In this document: in pieces, positions 5,886 to 23,831 of the stretch
How the letters are laid out: each line of letters starts with the position of its first letter
Numbering within the stretch: position 1 is the stretch's first letter
Assembly: GCA_031414595.1 (NCBI GenBank)
Contig: JANNVX010000025.1
Coordinates: 1 to 23,831, forward strand
Source of the DNA: Deinococcales bacterium
GTDB lineage: Bacteria; Deinococcota; Deinococci; Deinococcales; JAAFIG01
Reading direction: 5' to 3'
DNA length: 23,831 nt
Position numbers and translations under genes: made by a program
The notes under the pieces: model-generated
Seen by the model: only the letters and a program-made list of their open reading frames with translations
The model's database searches: none
Told to the model about the DNA's origin: nothing

Positions 5886-5981
5886 TCATAAATTATACGC
5901 AGCTTAGTGCGGTAAGATAAACCATGCTCGAGAAGTTGGTGTTAAAAAACGTTAGACCCGCCCCGAGATGAGCCTTGAGTT
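5800..5981 (+). repeat. 182-bp direct repeat, copy 1
   Basis: Matches 7832-8013 (offset 2032) with one mismatch (G5847/A7879). Confidence 0.95.
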
Positions 5982-7185
5982 TGCGCCTCGAGTGAATATT
6001 ATTACGGGCGATAATGGTTTGGGGAAAAGTTTTATTTTAGATGTGGCATGGTGGGCATTGACGGGTCTTTGGCTTGGACGTACAAACTCACAAATGCAAC
6101 ATGGAAGAATGGCGAGACCTCAGTCAAAAGAAAAAGTAGCAACCCTTAGCTTTGTAAAATCGAATGGGGCTTCAACTTATCAATTTTCCTCAAAATATCA
6201 GCGCTGGGACACATCTGACTCTGTTTCAACGAACACTGACAATGTAATCACTATGCAAGTATGTCCAGATGGGGAGTTTGGAGTTTTTGACCCATATCGA
6301 TCAAGTAAATATGGCTTTTCGAGTTTAGAAATATGGGATGGAATGGTTCATTTGATACCACTTATTGGACGAGATGATCCAGAAAAAAGAGTGGTTTGTA
6401 ACGGCTTAATCCACGACTGGTCTCTCTGGCTACTCGAAAAGGGTGATTCCCTCAGACAACTTGAGAAAGCGCTCGAAATTTTATCGCCCAACGCCGACGA
6501 AAAACTGACTGCCACAAAATCAACTCGAGTCAGTGTAGATGATGTGCGTGATATTCCAACCCTGAAAATGCCATATGGTCAAGAAGTGCCTGTTACCCAT
6601 GCTTCTTCGGGTATCAAACGCATTATTTCGATTGCTTATTTGCTGGTTTGGACTTGGCAGGAGCATTTGCGAGTCGCAGAACTTCGTCAACTCGAGCCGA
6701 GTAAAAAAATGGTGCTTTTAATTGATGAACTCGAGAATCATTTGCACCCACAATGGCAACGTGTGATTCTACAATCTTTACTTAATGTGGTTAAAGAAAT
6801 TATGCAGGACGATGTAGAAATTCAAATTATTGCCACAACCCATTCACCGCTTGTCATGGCGAGTCTCGAGCCAATTTTTGATGTTGACCAAGATGCTTGG
6901 TTTGACCTGAACTTAGTAAACGGTACTGTCCAACTCGAGAAGATGCCTTGGGCGCGGCGCGGTGGGGCTGAGAATTGGCTTATGAGTGAAGCCTTTGACT
7001 TGCACAGCACAGGCTCAAAGCCTCGAGAAGCCATGATTGAGGAAGCCTCGCGGATTTTCGATGCGGTTAAACCCTCGAAAAAGAAGTTTCTCGAGGTAGA
7101 TAAGAAATTGCGGGCTATTTTATCTGACACTGATGAATTCTGGGATAATTGGCGTTTTCTTGGACGCAAAAAAGGGTGGCTGTGA
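5924..7185 (+). CDS. ABC-type AAA_21/AAA_15 ATPase, Septu PtuA-like; apparent frameshift near 5957-5963 (intact ORF 5968-7185)
   Basis: Walker A GDNGLGKS, 'ASSG', Walker B LLIDELENHLHPQWQR, 'TTHSP'. The ATG at 5924 gives a typical N-terminal strand MLEKLVLKNV.PAP but lies in another frame. Confidence 0.8.
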
Positions 7186-7781
7186 TTCCAGTTGTTTTGC
7201 AGTCTGAACCCTCGGATTTCGATGTCAAAGTACGACAAAAAGGTAAAACGTGGTTATTGGCAAAAGGAATAGATACGACAAAACCTTTACCAAAAAAAAC
7301 CAAGCTGCCTTCTTACTGGACATCATGTATTCCAGATTTACGGCTTGCCTACCGCAACATTTGTGCGTATGTCTGTATTCACATCGAAGAAATTATAGGG
7401 AATGCCACAGTCGAACATTTTAAGCCAAAGTCGTTGTACCCAAAACAGATTTATGAATGGGATAATTATTTGTTGGTCTGTGGCACAATGAACGGTCGCA
7501 AAAGCAATTTTGAAGATGTTCTAAGTCCGTTTTTATTAGCCCCAAACACATTTTATTTGAATTTAGCGAATGGTCGAATACGTCCAAATCCTAGTCTTAC
7601 AACACTCGAGCAACAAGCGGCACAACAAACCATTGACCGATTAAAACTGGATAAAGCCGATGCGCGAAAATTGCGTTTACGGTATTGGAAAAAGTTTACA
7701 ACTGGAAAAATTGCTGAGTCTGAATTACAAGAACTCTCGCCGTTTGCGTGGCTTGAGGCAAAACGCCAAGGCTGGTTGTAA
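7182..7781 (+). CDS. HNH endonuclease, Septu PtuB-like
   Basis: GTGA overlap with the ATPase stop; CAYVC...TVEHFKPKS....YEWDNY.L.C..MN.RK HNH motif. Confidence 0.85.
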   Translation: MIPVVLQSEPSDFDVKVRQKGKTWLLAKGIDTTKPLPKKTKLPSYWTSCIPDLRLAYRNICAYVCIHIEEIIGNATVEHFKPKSLYPKQIYEWDNYLLVCGTMNGRKSNFEDVLSPFLLAPNTFYLNLANGRIRPNPSLTTLEQQAAQQTIDRLKLDKADARKLRLRYWKKFTTGKIAESELQELSPFAWLEAKRQGWL

Positions 7782-16308: not shown

Positions 16309-17850
16309 GTGACCGCCCTCGAAGCCTTTTGTTCTAGCCAACTTCTTTCTTTGCATCGTTTAGCCCATACAGATTTCTTGGCGGCACTACAAACTCCTCG
16401 GGTTGTCAATCGTGATGCTTTGTCAGAAGCGGTTCTCGAGTACAGCCTGAGTCTTGGTGCGCCCAAAGCGGTTCTCGAGAATGCCAAGTTACTGGCGCAC
16501 CCGCAGTCCCTAACCATCATGACTGGACAGCAAGCGGGTTTGCTGCTTGGGGCTTCGTACACGATTTCTAAGGCAGTGGATGCGGTTTTGCTGGCTCGGC
16601 GTTATTCAAGTCCTGAACGTCCTGTACTGCCTGTTTTTTGGGTCGCAAGCCAAGACCATGATTCTGATGAGGTGCGTCATGCCTTTCTGCTAGATTTATC
16701 TGAAACCCAGCATCAAATCAGTCTCGAGTTACCCAAAGGAATCCCGATAGGTGCAATTCCACTCGAGCCACATTATCTCGAGACGATTTTGCAGCACCTA
16801 CAGAATTTCGATGCTCCCGAAGTTTTCAAGACTCCAATTTGTGAAATGCTCAAAACAACCTTTGGCGCTTCAAAAACATATAGTGAATGGTTCTCGAGAA
16901 TTTTAATGTACCTCCTTGGGAATTATGGGCTTTTAATTGTTGACCCTTTGTACCCAAGTATTGCGGCGTTGTTCACGGCTGGTATTCAACACGAACTCGA
17001 GTCTCCATTGGCTTCAAGTGCAGGTATTGAACGGGCGGCGGTGAAACTTGAGGATTTTGGACTGACCCCACAATTACGGCGTGGTGAACAAGCCACCAAT
17101 CTTTTTTTAACGGGCGTGGATGGGCAGCGCCGTTTACTTAAATTTGATGGTCAAGAATTTATGGCTGACCATGCCTATAGCAAAGCCGAACTTCTTAGTA
17201 TTCTCGAGTCTAGCCCGTGGCGTTTAACCCCAGCCGCCGGTTTACGCTCAATTCTTGCCGATGCGGTCTTTCCAAGTGTGGTCAATGTCCTAGGACCTGG
17301 TGAACTTGCTTATCATTTGCAACTGCTCGAGGTTTACCAACTTCATCAAGTGCCGCAACCCTTAATGTCACCGCGTCTTAGCATGACAATTATTGAACCA
17401 CCCATTAAACGGATTCTCGAGAAGCACAATTTAACCGCTCGAGAATTCCAGCAAAATAGGGGAGAGCCACTTCGCAACCAATTATTTGAAACACACCGAG
17501 CCAAAACAAGAATTTTAAGCACTTTGGAGCAGAACATGGCTCAGATTGAAAGCCTGAGCAACGATTTAACCCAACTCGAGACTGGTTTTTCCAAGAGCGT
17601 TTGGCGGATGCAAGCCGCCATGCGGTATCAACTCGAGAACAAGCTACCTAAAAAACTTCAAGCTGCGCTGCTTCGTGCCGATACCGATTTGCAAAGTCAG
17701 TTAATTCGTCTCGAGAAGCACTTGCTGCCAAGTGGAATACCTCAAGAACGCCATAACAGTTTCCTCGAGTATATTCTAAAGTTTGGCACGGTTGCGCTGG
17801 ACAAAGTTTTTACCCTCGAGCCGAGTAAAGCATCCGAACTCGAGATTTAA
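16309..17850 (+). CDS. bshC: Bacillithiol biosynthesis cysteine-adding enzyme BshC
   Basis: TGQQAGL..G..YT..KA, PVFWVASQDHD, GPGELAY, C-terminal coiled coil and PQER. Confidence 0.93.
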   Translation: MTALEAFCSSQLLSLHRLAHTDFLAALQTPRVVNRDALSEAVLEYSLSLGAPKAVLENAKLLAHPQSLTIMTGQQAGLLLGASYTISKAVDAVLLARRYSSPERPVLPVFWVASQDHDSDEVRHAFLLDLSETQHQISLELPKGIPIGAIPLEPHYLETILQHLQNFDAPEVFKTPICEMLKTTFGASKTYSEWFSRILMYLLGNYGLLIVDPLYPSIAALFTAGIQHELESPLASSAGIERAAVKLEDFGLTPQLRRGEQATNLFLTGVDGQRRLLKFDGQEFMADHAYSKAELLSILESSPWRLTPAAGLRSILADAVFPSVVNVLGPGELAYHLQLLEVYQLHQVPQPLMSPRLSMTIIEPPIKRILEKHNLTAREFQQNRGEPLRNQLFETHRAKTRILSTLEQNMAQIESLSNDLTQLETGFSKSVWRMQAAMRYQLENKLPKKLQAALLRADTDLQSQLIRLEKHLLPSGIPQERHNSFLEYILKFGTVALDKVFTLEPSKASELEI

Positions 17851-17855
17851 GCACA

Positions 17856-18566
17856 TCATAACTTTTGATTATACTCAACTACTATTTCTACTCGGTTGTC
17901 TGCTTCAGAACGTTTTTCCTTGATACCACTAAATGGTGTCTGGCTTCCTCGAGCAGAGACAGCCAAGTAATTTGATTTGATTTGTCCAAGGGTTGAAAAA
18001 AGATTGGCAATAGTGGCGGCTCGTTGTGCTGATAAGTTCCAATTGTCCAAACCCTGTTTAGATGGTGCGCTATGTCCTTCAATCCGAATCCGACGATAGT
18101 TGCCAAATTGAGAACGCAATGCTTCTGCCAGTGCTAAAAACTTTTGTTCGCCTTGAGGTGTTAGTACCGCCGATTGTGCTGTCTTAAACAGTAATGCTCC
18201 AAGTTTGTTATCTTTATAAAAAACCCAGCGTTGAGCGCCTGGAGGGTCATTGCGAAATGTCGAGGGTAATTCTGTAGGGCGTAGCTCTGGCTTAATGGTT
18301 TGAATTGAAACACGGATTGTTTGCTGCGCCTTTTTGTATTTTACTTTTTCGCGTTCATTTTCTTCAATAATTTGTTGTGCTTTCTGATAAATGGTTTTAT
18401 TGGTTGCGTTTTCTTGAATTATAACTTGTGTTTTCACACGATTAATTTCATTCGCAACCATTAAAGCCGCCATCATAAAAATCAGAATGAAAATCACGTT
18501 AATCGTTACATCAGCAAGTGCAATGTAAGGGTTAATGGTCTCATTTGAGTGGCTATATTTTCTCAT
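17856..18566 (-). CDS. MotB/ZorB-like protein: TM helix with conserved Asp plus OmpA-like peptidoglycan-binding domain
   Basis: PYIALADVTINVIFILIF TM; IRIEGHS, NWNLSAQRA, NRVEI. ATG 18566 overlaps the upstream stop (ATGA). Confidence 0.85.
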   Translation of the reverse strand: MRKYSHSNETINPYIALADVTINVIFILIFMMAALMVANEINRVKTQVIIQENATNKTIYQKAQQIIEENEREKVKYKKAQQTIRVSIQTIKPELRPTELPSTFRNDPPGAQRWVFYKDNKLGALLFKTAQSAVLTPQGEQKFLALAEALRSQFGNYRRIRIEGHSAPSKQGLDNWNLSAQRAATIANLFSTLGQIKSNYLAVSARGSQTPFSGIKEKRSEADNRVEIVVEYNQKL

Positions 18567-20188
18567 TTCTTTCCAAGTGGTCTTGGGTCGCCCTTTTTGC
18601 GCCAAAGCAATTCAAGCTTTTCGTTCCCAGAAGAATTGGAAATATTTTCCTCTTTTTCACTAGGTATACCAACACCTTGTTCCGTCTGAAATATACTTAT
18701 CGCTGCCTCTAGTTGTCTAAAGGAAACATTCAATACTTCAAAAGTTTCATTGAGTACACCAAATGTTTCAATGTATTTTTCAGATAGACTCGGAAGACTT
18801 TTTTCAAGGCGTGCGAACCGATCATCTAGATGTCTGATAATATCGTTTGATTTAGAGATTTGGTTACTGCCCTCTTCACGAAAGGCTTTTATAGTATCAT
18901 CAAGGTTTTTTGCTAATTCACCTAATTGTCGAGAAATTTGATCACTTTTGCTGGAGAAATCCGTTTGTAACTCTGCAATTTTATCGGTTTGACTCGAGAA
19001 GTGTGTAGTCAAAACAGTAGTAGCATTTCCAAATAAACTAGGAAGACCATTTTCGAGTCGTTCAAAACGAGTATCTAAACGTCCAACAACTTCATTTGAC
19101 CGAACAAGCTGTTTCCCACCTTCTTCACGGAAAGCCGCCACCGTTTTGTCAAGAACTCCTGTTAAACCACCCACTTGTTCAAGAATATCATCGCTTTTTT
19201 TGGCAAAGCCAACTTGCAACTCTCCAATTTCTTTAATTTGCCCTGAAAGCTGTTTGGTTAAATCTTCTGCTGCATTTTCAAATCTTTTTGAACCATTTTC
19301 TGCTGCCCTAGCTAAATTCTCAGCTCCTTGATTGAGCAAATTTCCAAATTCATCCACTCGAGCAGTCACTGTATTAATCATTTGTGTGGCATTACTAGAA
19401 ACATCTTCTAGTTTCTCTAGGGTTTCTTGAACATGATTACCCGCGTCTGTTAGAACACTTTTGAATGTCGCTGTAGTAATTGTAAGTACAGTTGTAAATT
19501 CCTTAACAGTCTCGTTACTTTGAGCAAGAAGTTTTTGTTGTTCTTCAAGTTGAGCTTCTGTACTACTTGGAAAAACAAGTGGAATGAACGAAACCAAGAT
19601 AAATGTTTGCAATTGACTTAAGAATTGGTCGCGTAGTAGTGCAAACACACTGAGTAATAATGAAGCAACAACCGAAAGAAAAACTCCAAATAAGGTAGCT
19701 CCAAAACCACCCTGCATTGAAGCCACTGTTGAACTCAGTTGACTCTGAAAAATTTCAAGACTGGTAGGGTTATTTAATTGCAGTTTGCCCACTGAACTTG
19801 CCAAGCTATACACTGTGCCAAGCAAACCTGTTAGCATTAGCAGATTAGGTATAATTTTGGCGGCGCTTAAATAAGTGCCTTCTCGAGAAAAAAGCAAACC
19901 CATAATTGCTTCAATATTTGGATTTGAAATGGTTCGAGACTCCCATATCGCCTTTGTTATGTTGAAAACAACACCATTTTTTTGATCTTCTTGTAAGAGT
20001 TTAGCTATCTGGTTTTTTCCTTCATTTTTTGATTGTTCTTGGATAATAGAATTAAACTTATTGAACAGATTTTTTTGAAAAATAAGATCAAGAGATTCTA
20101 CAAAGAGAATGATAATTAGAAAACCAAAAAAGATTCCAAATATTGCAAGAATAAAAATTGGCATCTCATTCATAAAAACTTCAAGCAT
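18563..20188 (-). CDS. MotA/TolQ/ExbB-like, ZorA-like proton-channel subunit with a long C-terminal helical tail
   Basis: AGGAG RBS; TM1; P..L...GLLGTV; GF.ATLFGV..S; then about 330 aa of helical/coiled-coil sequence. Confidence 0.85.
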   Translation of the reverse strand: MLEVFMNEMPIFILAIFGIFFGFLIIILFVESLDLIFQKNLFNKFNSIIQEQSKNEGKNQIAKLLQEDQKNGVVFNITKAIWESRTISNPNIEAIMGLLFSREGTYLSAAKIIPNLLMLTGLLGTVYSLASSVGKLQLNNPTSLEIFQSQLSSTVASMQGGFGATLFGVFLSVVASLLLSVFALLRDQFLSQLQTFILVSFIPLVFPSSTEAQLEEQQKLLAQSNETVKEFTTVLTITTATFKSVLTDAGNHVQETLEKLEDVSSNATQMINTVTARVDEFGNLLNQGAENLARAAENGSKRFENAAEDLTKQLSGQIKEIGELQVGFAKKSDDILEQVGGLTGVLDKTVAAFREEGGKQLVRSNEVVGRLDTRFERLENGLPSLFGNATTVLTTHFSSQTDKIAELQTDFSSKSDQISRQLGELAKNLDDTIKAFREEGSNQISKSNDIIRHLDDRFARLEKSLPSLSEKYIETFGVLNETFEVLNVSFRQLEAAISIFQTEQGVGIPSEKEENISNSSGNEKLELLWRKKGDPRPLGKK

Positions 20189-20354
20189 CTTTCTCCTTTC
20201 GTATCAATAAAATAATAAAGCGCTTGTTGTGTGATGGACGAACAAAAGGGCTTTCTTTTCATAAGGCAATTGGTTTTCTTGAACTTAGTTGTGATGGGTT
20301 TACACTGTTCAATACAAGTTAGTTGCGGTGCTGTATCCCCTACAGAGCTAACAC

Positions 20355-23300
20355 CTACTGAAATGGATTCCATTCACGCCCAAACGGGTGTAATGGGTCT
20401 TCTGGGTAGAACGAGCAGCGTAATCCGTTGGCAAGGGCTTCTTCTCGTGTGTACCCAACCAAACCACCACAAACAAGACAGTAATAGCCATCTCTGTCAA
20501 AAAAACCGTTACCTTGAGGTCTGGGATCGTTTTGTTTACGCCACAATGATTGTATTAGCTCATCTTCTGGTGGGAATACCGCGTATAAGTCGTTGAGCAT
20601 CTGGCGGTCTTTTAATCGATTAACAATAAGCCGTTCAATAGCTGGTTTACTCCATCCGTCTATAACTGCTCCATTTCCTTCCAGTAATTGCTTTTGTAAG
20701 TACCGAATATAGGCTTGGTTTGCATCTCCAAGTTGTTTACTTTCTTGAACAAAAGATTGATATTTACTATCAATTAAGGCATTTAAGCGTGTTTTGACAC
20801 CATCAAGGCGTTTTTGCCCTGTAGCATCTACATCGGAAAATGCCAACAAACGAGCTGCTCTATCTATTCGGGCGGGGAAGCGACGTTGGCGCTGCTTGGG
20901 GTCTTTGGATTCCCCCATTCCTTCTTGCCAGTCCATAACCAGAAAACCAAACTCGAGACGTAGAACTTCATGCAGGATACCAAAGCATAACAAATCTTCG
21001 GCATCTTTGAGTTTTGCGATTTCTCCATCAGATATTGGAGTCCAGTCCATGTCTTCGCGCTTTCGCGTGAAATATGTTGGATACAGTTCGCACTTGGCAT
21101 TGGCTAAAACTTGGGTAATATCAAGTGAACCACGCAAAGCAAATTTGTACCATTCTTCTAACATCACAATGCGGAAAGGGTTTGTAATATCACTTTGTCG
21201 TGCAGTAGGGTTGGCATTGCGCCACGGCGTTATTGCATTGCGAAACTCATCGGTGAGATTGCGTCCAAGCAATAGCTTTTTCTTTGGCAGTGGGGTCATT
21301 GGGTCTGGCTGCCCGAGATTTTCAGTAATTGGTAAGAAGATCGTGGCGGCTCGAGCGGCTGCCATACTTTCTTGTTCTGGTGAAAAAGTGGGTGATTTTG
21401 CTTCAAATAATCGAGTGACAATATCTTTGTTATTAGGGTCTGATAAAGGACGAAACGGTTCAACAGCTATTTCTTCAAGCCCCCGTAATTGTGCAGGTTC
21501 AAAAATAGCCTGTCCAACAATATAAGACAGCATAAGCCAATCGGGATCATTTCCTGTTGGTACAATGGCTTTGGGTAAATCTACCCAACTGCGAATGATA
21601 TTGCTGCTAACACTTTCTAGCTTATCTTCTGGAACTGCTGTTTTCCATTCAATATCCACAGTACCGTTTGGTGAGGGTTCAAACAAAGCCAGACCATTAA
21701 TGTCAGACTCTTTGCCTTCTAATTTCATGATATTTCCAGACCAATCCAGTGTTTGACTGGTCAATCTCGAAGCCAAATTCCGTAGTCGCTTAATAATCTT
21801 ATTGGTTTCAAGTTCAATGAGACCCAGTGCGCCTATATCGGTTCTTTGTCCACTGCCAGAGTCACGCAACACATCTTTTGTGGCTTGTTCTATTCGGGTT
21901 TTCATTTCATCTTTAAGTGTTTTGTCAAGTTTTCCGATTAAACGCCCAATGGCTTTACTGCGTAAGCCAAAAGCACCCAACAAAACATTTGTTCGGATTT
22001 CATCAATTTTTTCTAACATGGTATTGGTCGCACTTGCACTCACACTCACATCAGCAAGTTTTCGGCTTCGCAATTCGCCAATTCGACCACTCACACCATC
22101 TAAAATCGCTAGAATTGGCGCTGGTCCAATATCATAATCAAGTAATTTGGAACGAATGATTCCAGCAAAATTATTCACGATTTCCGAAGCGGCTCGAGTA
22201 CGATTTACTTCTACTGCACGGATGATTAAACCCTTAAAGCCCTCGCCTTTATCCTTTTCAAAAGCGCCGCGAAACTCTCCTAGTGATTTTTTAGCCGTGT
22301 CTATATCACCACGTTTAGCTGCTGCAGTGACTTCTCTGATTTTTCCTTCAAGTCGTGGACGTAAATTTGCCCCACCTTCTTCACGAATTAAAGCATTGAT
22401 TAAATCAGGTAAAGTTAGCCCCAAGCCATCAAGTTCATCCTCTTGTTTCGTTTCAAGTGGACGGTCTTTCCATTGCTTAAAAGCATGATGCAAAGTTTTT
22501 AATTTACAAGCCTCGATGATTCGTCTAACTGGATATTCAATGGTTGAAAGCCCAAAAGTCGCAAAGGCAAAACTACGTCCGTTCTTTGGTGGTACAACTC
22601 CACCATCTACAATTTGTGCCATTGGATCAGATTCTGGAACAAAAATATTTAAAAACACGCGGTCAGCCACGGCGCTATTCAATTTAGCTTCATCTTCGGT
22701 TGTGGTTTCTCGAGAACGAACCAAATACACCAAATCATAGGGAGTTTCATCTGGCGAGAGTATTTCCTCACCGTAATTACGATCATAATACTTAATACCT
22801 TTATAGCGGTCACGGTCAGTATAATTATGATACTGATTGAGTTCTTGCAAAGCATGGTAAGCATTGGTTTTACGAAGTTCTGCTAAACCAGAATTGTCAT
22901 TTGCAATGGTGTACCCAGGGTGCGGTAAAGTAAAAATGCCAATGAGACGTTCGGATTTACTGGTAATGGTCTGCAACAAAATACCAAAGTCAGAAGCAGT
23001 ACCACTGCATGTTCCTCCAAGCAGCGTGCCAGTCACAATAATCCGTATCCCTTCAGCAAAAATAACATCTGTTTCGAGTCCAACGGCATCTTTATTTAAT
23101 TTATTTTTTGCTTCGGCAGGGGTTAAATTTCTTAGCCGTGCCAGTCTATCAGCTAACGCATTTTTGATATTTGGGTAATTATTTGAATGCAGCAGTGCCA
23201 AACGTCCAACCATACGAATGTTACCTGCTCCCGCATCCACTGCCCCTGCTTTTAACTGACGTAAGGTATCAATGTCCGCCCAACGCTCGAGTGCAATGGT

Positions 23301-23555
23301 ATCGTTGTAGTTTTGAGGGTTGTTAATCACATCACTATAAGAAGCTGCATCCAGTGTTAGGGTCTTAAAATTATCGCCTGGATTAAATCGACTACGCTCT
23401 GCTGCATTTGTTTCTACACACAAAAATTCAATCCAAGGCGCACGGTCAAGCGAACCTACTTCCCACTCCACCCGCTCTGCCAAAGCATTGCAAACTCGAG
23501 TTCCTGTACTACCCAGACCAACTACTAATGTTTTGATAACGCGAAGATCAGACAT
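20355..23555 (-). CDS. Tubulin/FtsZ-like (Tubulin_2 / FtsZl1-type) large protein
   Basis: GGGAG RBS; LVVGLGSTG loop, GAGNIRMVGRLAL, GGTCSG signature, N.YHAL.EL, FGLSTI.YP; long helical region; C-terminal C..C/C...H. Confidence 0.85.
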   Translation of the reverse strand: MSDLRVIKTLVVGLGSTGTRVCNALAERVEWEVGSLDRAPWIEFLCVETNAAERSRFNPGDNFKTLTLDAASYSDVINNPQNYNDTIALERWADIDTLRQLKAGAVDAGAGNIRMVGRLALLHSNNYPNIKNALADRLARLRNLTPAEAKNKLNKDAVGLETDVIFAEGIRIIVTGTLLGGTCSGTASDFGILLQTITSKSERLIGIFTLPHPGYTIANDNSGLAELRKTNAYHALQELNQYHNYTDRDRYKGIKYYDRNYGEEILSPDETPYDLVYLVRSRETTTEDEAKLNSAVADRVFLNIFVPESDPMAQIVDGGVVPPKNGRSFAFATFGLSTIEYPVRRIIEACKLKTLHHAFKQWKDRPLETKQEDELDGLGLTLPDLINALIREEGGANLRPRLEGKIREVTAAAKRGDIDTAKKSLGEFRGAFEKDKGEGFKGLIIRAVEVNRTRAASEIVNNFAGIIRSKLLDYDIGPAPILAILDGVSGRIGELRSRKLADVSVSASATNTMLEKIDEIRTNVLLGAFGLRSKAIGRLIGKLDKTLKDEMKTRIEQATKDVLRDSGSGQRTDIGALGLIELETNKIIKRLRNLASRLTSQTLDWSGNIMKLEGKESDINGLALFEPSPNGTVDIEWKTAVPEDKLESVSSNIIRSWVDLPKAIVPTGNDPDWLMLSYIVGQAIFEPAQLRGLEEIAVEPFRPLSDPNNKDIVTRLFEAKSPTFSPEQESMAAARAATIFLPITENLGQPDPMTPLPKKKLLLGRNLTDEFRNAITPWRNANPTARQSDITNPFRIVMLEEWYKFALRGSLDITQVLANAKCELYPTYFTRKREDMDWTPISDGEIAKLKDAEDLLCFGILHEVLRLEFGFLVMDWQEGMGESKDPKQRQRRFPARIDRAARLLAFSDVDATGQKRLDGVKTRLNALIDSKYQSFVQESKQLGDANQAYIRYLQKQLLEGNGAVIDGWSKPAIERLIVNRLKDRQMLNDLYAVFPPEDELIQSLWRKQNDPRPQGNGFFDRDGYYCLVCGGLVGYTREEALANGLRCSFYPEDPLHPFGREWNPFQ

Positions 23556-23569
23556 AAATCAACTCCCTT

Positions 23570-23686
23570 TTAACTTCTTAATTGCAGAACGAAAGCGAGT
23601 GTAAAAGTCAAGAAAAATACAACTAAACCATAGATAATAGCGTTTACTAAAGTCTGTGGAGGAATAATAAAATATCCAAATGCCAT
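23570..23686 (-). CDS. Possible small hydrophobic ORF, or the 3' remnant of a membrane protein gene
   Basis: Reads MAFGYFIIPPQTLVNAIIYGLVVFFLTFTLAFVLQLRS and stops 14 nt before the tubulin-like ATG. No clear RBS. Confidence 0.3.
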   Translation of the reverse strand: MAFGYFIIPPQTLVNAIIYGLVVFFLTFTLAFVLQLRS

Positions 23687-23831
23687 AAAAACAATAGTCT
23701 GGAACGTTTTTTAAATTTAAGAAATTAAAAGTGGAAGCCCTACTGTAAGCTGTGAGTGTCTAAACCAACGCTCCAAAAAGGCTTCCATGACTATCTTAAA
23801 CCAAATTCTGACCTTAGCGGGTATTCGCAAA

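Follow-up and report, generated by a model that had tools for sequence, protein, structure and literature searches.

Why would bacteria keep a tubulin-fold GTPase in a row with the two subunits of an ion-driven membrane motor, and what might such a combination do? The question is raised by a stretch of 23,831 nt from a Deinococcales bacterium (GenBank assembly GCA_031414595.1, contig JANNVX010000025.1), referred to here as the window, which is the entire contig C25 of a genome of 4.49 Mb in 120 contigs. Reading along its minus strand, we find the genes for a tubulin-like protein of the FtsZl1/Tubulin_2 family with 1066 amino acids (aa; 20355..23555), a ZorA-like protein of the MotA/ExbB family with 541 aa (18563..20188) and a ZorB/MotB-like protein with 249 aa (17856..18605). 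A preliminary description of the window had proposed this trio as a candidate undescribed membrane-linked system of defence or remodelling, in which a motor resembling the ZorAB pair of the anti-phage system Zorya works with a tubulin-like GTPase in place of the usual effectors. Open reading frames (ORFs) and their translations agree with it on the position and common orientation of the three genes.

The operon is real and conserved, yet its gene neighbourhood is already in print. The claim that the system was undescribed does not hold: Additional file 5 of Makarova and Koonin (2010; PMC2875224) lists for D. radiodurans, and likewise for D. deserti, a 'MotA/TolQ/ExbB membrane protein' and a protein labelled OmpA beside FtsZl1. 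New in comparison to 2010 are the reading of the pair as a Zorya-type motor, the vWA-FHA receptor encoded upstream, the split tubulin fold and the exchange of this partner with helicase and TerY-P modules. Our leading, still tentative reading is that the operon is a conflict or stress module of accessory nature, which moves horizontally, is triggered at the envelope and is most likely directed against phages.

Conservation of the operon

A scan using one genome per species yielded 29 loci with the tubulin-like gene, 4 of which end inside or just after this gene. In 18 of the remaining 25, the tubulin-like gene is followed immediately and on its own strand by a ZorA-like gene and this by a ZorB-like gene; these linked loci are labelled Deinococcus, Meiothermus, Armatimonadota, Chthonomonadales, Fimbriimonas, a metagenome-assembled genome (MAG) of Actinomycetes and an unclassified bacterium. 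The other 7 comprise two loci of Abditibacteria type with a more divergent pair, one with the pair nearby on the opposite strand and four without a pair. Within the Deinococcota, the ZorA-like family profile places a ZorA-like gene beside the tubulin gene in 33 of 34 tubulin-positive genomes, the exception being cut by a contig end. A metagenome scan seeded by the ZorB-like family returned another set of 29 loci, 22 of them with at least 3 kb upstream; the order c1-[c4]-tubulin-ZorA-like-ZorB-like, in which c1 and c4 are the upstream genes described below, is present in 20 of these 22 and the tubulin gene is missing in 2, a count that leans toward linkage given that the patterns for the search had for the most part been derived from tubulin-linked sequences. 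The recurrence of the tubulin-motor linkage, for which the preliminary description had suggested a neighbourhood survey, is thus kept across phyla.

These counts bear on the simplest alternative, namely that the tubulin-like gene and the stator pair are unrelated units which are neighbours by chance. The spacer between the tubulin-like and the ZorA-like genes (20189..20354, minus strand) measures 166 nt and is longer than in other genomes, where the gap is 0-90 nt, and the stator family is also found without a tubulin gene. However, order and orientation are the same in Deinococcota, Armatimonadota, the Actinomycetes-labelled MAG and others, the adjacency counts are those given above, and a motif scan, which as a whole gave fewer sites than shuffled sequence, found no terminator-like or promoter-like site in the spacer, where the stretch gaaaggag precedes the ATG. 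We consider a chance neighbourhood very improbable and close to refuted. The sequencing runs listed for the locus comprise no RNA data; those holding it are four DNA runs of one study, from which the genome may derive.

The operon is an orthologue of the FtsZl1 operon DR_0540-DR_0536 of D. radiodurans. As far as Additional file 5 presents it, the block DR_0540-DR_0534 has the same order and sizes (421-478, 108-109, 1070, 411 and 200-201 aa), with DR_0540 given as 478 aa, DR_0539 as 109 aa, the FtsZl1 protein DR_0538 as 1070 aa, DR_0536 as an 'OmpA family protein', DR_0535 as 'LLR' and DR_0534 as a kinase (PMC2875224). In Deinococcus loci, the MotB-like gene is followed by genes for a protein with LRV/HEAT repeats and for a kinase-SH3-beta-helix protein. 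Unlike these, the window's copy lacks both downstream genes; no homologue of the LRV protein or the kinase adjoins the locus, and elsewhere in the genome there are just generic repeat or kinase matches. The window's copy also differs in having a duplicated small membrane gene that is split by a repeat resembling an insertion sequence (IS), and a longer tail of the motor, in which 83 residues are duplicated. For Cyanothece, the same file gives the succession vWA-FtsZl1-'B7'-'flagellar motor protein' (PMC2875224). The vWA-protein neighbour expected of the FtsZl1 family is present in our genome as well, as a c1 homologue next to a contig break.

The paper of 2010 predates Zorya. In the portions covered here, OmpA partners are called beta-barrel proteins, neither the second tubulin domain nor the T7 loop is located, and the first gene is not recognised as vWA-FHA (PMC2875224). 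A survey from 2023, in the part that concerns them, still treats Tubulin_2 proteins as uncharacterised. We found no literature that links Zorya-type motors with the FtsZl1 tubulin family, in a search outside of which most subscription journals lie, and none that names DR_0536, DR_0537 or DR_0538.

In two related metagenome loci (L084 and L090), four more co-oriented genes for proteins of ~377, 373-387, 609 and 822 aa follow the ZorB-like gene.

The tubulin-like protein

The assignment of the first protein to a tubulin-like family, made in the preliminary description, is upheld by the Pfam model Tubulin_2 (PF13809), which covers residues 10-359 with E 1.8e-60 (205.6 bits, cut-off 27). A search of 5.8 billion proteins gave 41 matches, of which 40 are full-length with 1050-1087 aa; the named ones among these homologues are from Deinococcus, with 47-52% identity along the entire length. 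An ORF of 1066 codons in DNA of ~40% GC, together with such E-values, is far beyond chance. The mostly helical middle and C-terminal regions and the total length fit the description of the FtsZl1 family (~1000-1100 aa), and a separate canonical ftsZ is present elsewhere in the genome.

An AF2 model with a mean pLDDT of 90.2 and a pTM of 0.77 allowed a comparison with solved structures. The N-terminal GTP-binding domain (residues 10-359, 22479..23528, minus strand) is matched best by CetZ2 in Foldseek (4b45_A, E 1.3e-6), followed by tubulins and FtsZ. It contains the tubulin signature loop GGTCSGT at residues 180-186 (22998..23018, minus strand), in which G180, G181, T182, S184 and G185 are invariant among 55 aligned sequences; in the same alignment, residues of this G-box and of the T1, T3 and T4 loops are invariant. 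A structural aligner gave Z 26.1 for CetZ2 4b45_A (307/334 residues, model range 7-826), Z 22.2 for FtsZ 2vaw_A (272/315 residues) and Z 21.9 for TubZ 4xcq_A, and Z 15.0 for 7yop_A, which comprises the N-domain of FtsZ and is aligned with model residues 6-287. The CetZ and FtsZ alignments span model residues 7-826 yet align just ~270-330 residues. From these aligned ranges, the model probably contains a complete two-domain tubulin/FtsZ fold that is split by a helical insert.

According to the secondary structure of the model, the insertion is all-helical and covers residues ~365-745 (21321..22463, minus strand), that is, about 380-400 residues with approximate boundaries. The putative second, C-terminal domain of the fold would lie at residues ~750-830 (21066..21308, minus strand; boundaries approximate), with strands at 758-763, 786-788 and 795-805. 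It is followed by a C-terminal extension of ~230 residues (840-1066; 20358..21038, minus strand) that ends in C1026-x2-C1029...C1047...H1057. Conservation of C1026 and of C1047 is 90% or higher. The CxxC...C...H arrangement may bind zinc. Compared to CetZ, FtsZ, TubZ, PhuZ and tubulin, the protein has the two-domain fold and intact GTP-binding loops, and differs by the helical insertion of ~400 residues that splits the fold and by the extension behind it. The Pfam models Tubulin, FtsZ_C and Tubulin_C do not match the protein, and the tubulin family profile, compared by sequence with solved structures, found matches at chance level only. N231/E238 was considered as the T7 loop and dropped; it looks more like the EPYN-type T5/H5 motif of tubulin.

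The motor pair

A hidden Markov model comparison supports the earlier view that the pair is ZorAB-like. The profile of 18 ZorA-like family members has ZorA as its best solved chain (8qyd_A, E 7.6e-10) and matches tail-less ZorA in the membrane part (8qyh_A, E 5.6e-4). The membrane core of the window's protein (residues 1-195, 19604..20188, minus strand) has hydrophobic segments at ~9-31 and ~160-190 and a Gly/Thr-rich segment at ~112-134 that is aligned with the second transmembrane helix (TM2) of ZorA. GLLGT and AFG-S/T motifs are conserved in the family, and G121, T125 and F162 are invariant in the 18-sequence alignment. T125, a Thr in 18/18 sequences, is aligned with ZorA Thr147, and T165 in TM3, a Ser or Thr in 17/18, with ZorA Ser184. 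In the part of the Zorya structure paper that treats these residues, Thr147 and Ser184 of ZorA face the aspartate of ZorB, Asp26 (Hu et al. 2024, PMC11946911). The residues of the ion path are hence kept. Scores against curated models are lower: the NCBIfam ZorA models give 18-22 bits with cut-offs of 100-250, which means that the architecture agrees and that the score stays below the curated family threshold. The ZorA-like protein alone found nothing among solved structures at E up to 10, and a word-based homologue search retrieved a single relative, P0046, probably due to the helical tail, which swamps the word index.

The long tail noted at the outset is a cytoplasmic helical region of 346 residues behind the membrane core (residues 196-541, 18566..19603, minus strand) with helical-repeat matches in Pfam. 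It carries a tandem duplication of 83 residues (303-385 and 386-468; 51% identity and E 2e-25 in a self-alignment), which appears to account for much of its extra length over relatives of 402-411 aa. Across the ZorA-like family, the protein length varies between 392 and 900 aa, reflecting the length of the tail.

The ZorB/MotB-like protein, annotated from a TTG start, has a single transmembrane helix, which carries Asp32, and behind a linker an OmpA-like domain (residues 136-245, 17871-18200, minus strand; PF00691, E 2.3e-12), in agreement with the membrane Asp and OmpA-like domain already described. N25, P26 and D32 (nt 18510-18512) are invariant in 19/19 sequences, within the motif NP[YF][IV]A..D. 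The aligned homologues begin near Met14, the ATG of which (18564-18566) shares bases with the stop codon of the gene upstream in the form ATGA; translational coupling with the ZorA-like gene, also suspected before, thus holds with the TTG as well as with the ATG start. The PADLOC model ZorB1 matches weakly (E 1.4e-8), as do MotB models.

Taken together, the pair resembles ZorAB of E. coli (8qyd) in a MotA-type subunit with a long helical tail that varies in length among members, in a MotB-type subunit with a membrane Asp and a putative wall-binding domain, and in the positions corresponding to ZorA Thr147 and Ser184 and to ZorB Asp26. In contrast to Zorya, the similarity is low, ZorC, ZorD, ZorE, ZorF and ZorG are missing from the conserved block, and the partners are a tubulin-like GTPase and a vWA-FHA protein. 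The absence of ZorC, ZorD or ZorE-like genes had been anticipated by the preliminary description.

Membership of the MotA/ExbB/TolQ superfamily and an OmpA-like anchor of the kind found in Tol-Pal-type systems could also indicate that the pair energises a process at the outer envelope, such as transport or the integrity of an outer layer, in the manner of TolQR-Pal or ExbBD-TonB, and that the tubulin-like protein is a mere scaffold or regulator. A reviewer's comment published with the 2010 paper suggested transport or signalling in this sense (PMC2875224). However, TonB, TolA, Pal or a receptor-like partner was not found in the conserved block, the long cytoplasmic tail directs the output into the cell as in ZorA, and the best solved relative is ZorA, with no ExbB, TolQ or MotA chain among the best 60 matches of the family profile (down to E 0.036). 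We therefore consider such a role improbable, if less so than a chance neighbourhood.

A short motif is shared by the tail and its putative target. The tip of the tail contains LWRKKGDPRPLG (18572..18607, minus strand), 9 of 12 residues of which are identical to LWRKQNDPRPQG at residues 1004-1015 of the tubulin-like protein (20511..20546, minus strand), a motif conserved in its family in the form [LM][WFY][RK]xxG[DE]xxP[KQ]G. A match of this quality was reached in 2 of 1000 shuffles. Only 24 of 39 bases are common to both, so that a recent duplication of DNA is not the origin. The full tail-tip motif was seen just in the window's genome and is lacking from the tails of others; in the same-genus genome G131 the tail tip is cut off by a contig end. 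The shared motif is a small hint, specific to this genome, that tail and tubulin-like protein may be in direct contact.

Upstream genes

The expectation that further components lie beyond base 23831 was borne out on contig C64. In other genomes, a protein of ~430 aa (c1; 21 loci) and a small membrane protein of ~107 aa (c4) are encoded upstream of the tubulin gene. In the window's genome, c1 (C64:1034-2356) and a c4 of 107 aa are found at the start of C64, reading toward the contig end. A second c4-like gene is split over the two contigs, with its N-terminal part at C64:134-679 and its last 38 codons at 23570-23686 of the window (minus strand), the latter resembling the C-terminus of the 107-aa c4 and representing the C-terminal half of the gene.

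Next to this remnant lies the end of a multi-copy IS-like repeat (23692..23831, no strand assigned), ~136 nt upstream of the tubulin start codon and recognised by depth and copy number. Read depth is ~10-fold higher from 23692 on in four runs, and a high-depth unitig of 1327 nt starts there. The 140-nt segment 23692-23831 occurs with 100% identity at 8 places of the genome and, in each of the 7 where the locus is visible, lies at a contig end or beside one. C64:1-140 is the other end of the repeat and behaves in the same way, with 8 places at 100% identity; the interior of the repeat is outside the assembly. An IS-like element is thus inserted within the second c4-like gene and breaks the assembly. 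That C25 and C64 are true neighbours is likely from the two gene halves and from synteny, there being no bridging contig. The separation of the upstream genes from the tubulin gene by the IS-like element may have impaired this copy of the operon.

The c1 model (mean pLDDT 79.9) comprises two recognisable domains. In an all-against-all structural search, residues 59-258 match the vWA fold of 4fx5_A (Z 9.2, 144 residues aligned with an rmsd of 3.3), many vWA chains scoring Z 8-9, and residues 315-440 match the FHA fold of 6ccd_A (Z 9.3, 93 residues aligned with an rmsd of 2.6); FHA domains also ranked first in Foldseek. Pfam vWA models do not match c1, and a DxSxS metal site was not seen in the c1 alignment. 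The hydrophobic N-terminus, which ends in AHA, suggests that c1 consists of a secreted vWA domain, one membrane helix (~283-314) and a cytoplasmic FHA domain.

Accessory character and defence context

If the operon served the cell's own envelope, a rather uniform retention would be expected. Across the phylum, 34 of 364 genomes carry a member of the tubulin-like family; in genus g8 the count is 26 of 111, and in the genus to which the window belongs it is 1 of 7 other genomes. The GC content of the operon is 38-43% compared to 45-51% in the rest of the window, the flanking genes differ among genomes, and an integrase or transposase is located near two loci. In one Deinococcus genome (G057:C3:96084-100359) the tubulin-like gene is broken into pieces, with two TGA stops and an intervening gap of ~1 kb, and in another (G111:C41) two copies of the operon with identical scores lie ~79 kb apart on one contig. 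The copy of D. deserti has locus tags of the Deide_2p series, which we take to be a plasmid marker. Patchy distribution, low GC and variable location indicate that the operon is an accessory module.

Which company the motor keeps when the tubulin-like gene is absent is informative in this respect. A ZorA-like match without a tubulin match was found in 12 further Deinococcota genomes and in a second locus of genome G067 (13 loci in total). Among 10 of these 13 that were inspected, all have the motor pair and none the tubulin gene. In all 5 loci of genus g8 (L053-L056 and L059; Deinococcus G031, G032, G040, G046 and G067), which encode ZorA-like proteins of 604-991 aa, the pair is divergent from and back to back with a triad of TerY, PP2C and kinase, which is matched by the PADLOC models for TerY (E 1.6e-83), PP2C and STK_OB (E 1.4e-61). 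A NERD-UvrD helicase adjoins in 3 of the 5 (PADLOC 'Helicase', E 7e-74 to 7e-81; 'NERD+UvrD'). The other tubulin-less loci comprise two of another family, with vWA and PP2C neighbours, and three with none of these. Triad, motor pair and helicase, where present, may belong to a single larger system instead of to separate adjacent ones.

ZorB-like proteins from the tubulin-less loci share 31-38% identity with the one of the window. In a maximum-likelihood tree, those of 7 tubulin-less loci nest within the tubulin-linked diversity, with L057 and L058 distant, and strongly supported branches force at least 2 changes of label between tubulin-linked and tubulin-less; several rows labelled 'N' in this tree are too short to judge. 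From the nesting and from the neighbours it follows that one motor family serves at least two partner modules, one of which consists of defence-type proteins. The TerY-P system to which this triad corresponds (PDLC02224, PDLC02222 and PDLC02223) reportedly ranks among the tested defence systems. It shares with our operon the combination of a vWA protein with Ser/Thr phospho-signalling. In contrast to TerY-P, the vWA protein of the operon spans the membrane and carries an FHA domain, PP2C is missing from the operon and a kinase is present in the Deinococcus versions only; PADLOC TerY models do not match c1.

Not all observations point toward defence, and several weigh against it. PADLOC models, applied to 80 proteins that flank 14 tubulin loci, gave strong matches in just 2 of the 14 loci (BrxHI in one, BrxD with BrxHI in the other), a count for which no background rate is available; to these sparse neighbours of known defence type, the window adds solely a Septu pair 10 kb away. 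No PADLOC model matches the tubulin-like protein, c1 or c4, and a search of viral contigs gave no relative of the tubulin-like protein. The literature search did not find an experiment on any member of the operon. The same caution applies to the individual parts. The Pfam model MotA_ExbB (PF01618) remains below threshold for the ZorA-like protein (E 0.0059, 16.8 bits, cut-off 22.9) and reaches E <=0.01 in just 7 of 18 family members (best 2.1e-6), and the PADLOC and NCBIfam ZorA matches are weak and driven in part by the low-complexity helical tail. GHTD is the usual wall-binding motif of OmpA domains; in the OmpA-like domain of the ZorB-like protein, the R-A pair is kept and the Asp of this motif is missing (GHSAP), so that binding to the wall is not assured. 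A T7 catalytic loop was not located in the tubulin-like protein, an hhalign comparison of the family with the genome's own FtsZ covering 40 columns only, which leaves hydrolysis coupled to polymerisation unproven. Finally, most FtsZl1 operons listed in 2010 contain vWA but no MotAB-like pair (PMC2875224, as far as its lists go), from which it follows that the motor is an add-on and not part of the core.

Some of these points favour a machine for membrane remodelling or envelope maintenance, in which a filament of the tubulin-like protein gives shape to the inner membrane, mends it or produces vesicles, motor and vWA protein position and energise the filament, and phages play no part. Makarova and Koonin proposed remodelling in 2010, in the portion of the paper that deals with partners, from the large number of membrane-associated ones (PMC2875224). 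In our data all operon partners are membrane proteins, the other neighbours in the window are housekeeping genes, defence neighbours are strong in just the two loci mentioned, and the tubulin-like protein has no fitting PADLOC model. A core function at the envelope would, however, be expected to be retained more uniformly than the patchy spread described above; the foreign-looking GC content, the variable genomic position, the Deide_2p tags, the broken copy and the copy split by the IS-like element are also at odds with it, as are the sister motor pairs that adjoin TerY-P-type and NERD-UvrD proteins. We regard remodelling without a phage role as unlikely on balance, while it deserves more weight than an energiser of the outer envelope. 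A role of the operon in defence is plausible.

A distant subtype of the operon (~31% identity; L014 and L017) is found near TerD, an ATP-grasp protein of Ter operons, AIM24 and a vWA-MerR pair. The operons of L014 and L021 adjoin genes for helicases of the BrxHI or BrxD type.

Proposed mechanism and relevance

If the reading as an envelope-triggered defence module is followed, the operon would provide five parts, namely a receptor-like vWA-TM-FHA protein, one or two small membrane proteins, a tubulin-fold GTPase, a ZorA-like channel with a tail of perhaps ~45 nm, and a ZorB-like subunit that would contribute a proton-relay Asp and an OmpA-like wall anchor. The ZorA-like and ZorB-like subunits would assemble into a wall-anchored, ion-driven motor with a 5:2 stoichiometry. 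Motor and vWA-FHA receptor might then report an insult to the envelope, and a rotating or shifting tail could control the assembly of the tubulin-like protein, a GTP-dependent process, at the affected site of the membrane, with Ser/Thr phosphorylation, read by the FHA domain, as a possible gate. The tubulin-like protein would thereby take the place that nucleases hold in Zorya.

It is possible, and more doubtful than the anti-phage role as such, that the operon represents a further class of Zorya-like immunity, in which a ZorAB-type motor drives or gates a GTPase of the tubulin superfamily instead of recruiting a nuclease, and in which the motor exchanges output modules, being combined either with the tubulin-like and vWA-FHA proteins or with NERD-UvrD and TerY-PP2C-kinase. 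If true, a cytoskeletal polymer would serve bacteria as an immune effector where the envelope is breached; bacterial cytoskeletal polymers would be linked to immunity, and the tail of ZorAB-type motors would signal to targets besides nucleases. FtsZl1, predicted sixteen years ago, is the most divergent branch of the tubulin/FtsZ superfamily, and a Zorya-type motor accompanies it steadily in several phyla; the family of this motor is found in alternation with helicase and TerY-P modules of defence type. Taken as a whole, this gives a concrete and testable idea in the tractable D. radiodurans (DR_0540-DR_0534). Should the idea of a defence function fail, the operon would still be a new route to study the communication between an ion motor and a GTPase.

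Flanking genes

The gene bshC (16309-17850, plus strand; TIGR03998, 354 bits, cut-off 265.8) is convergent with the MotB-like gene at a distance of 5 nt, as described before. No helicase, HNH or flagellar gene lies next to the trio, which also agrees with the preliminary description. The nearest such gene belongs to the Septu pair ~10 kb away on the plus strand, consisting of PtuA (5968-7185; PADLOC PDLC00307, E 2.4e-136) and PtuB (7149-7781; PDLC00348, E 9.4e-60), with housekeeping genes between this pair and the trio. The ORFs of PtuA and PtuB overlap, and the GC content of this stretch is 42-43%.

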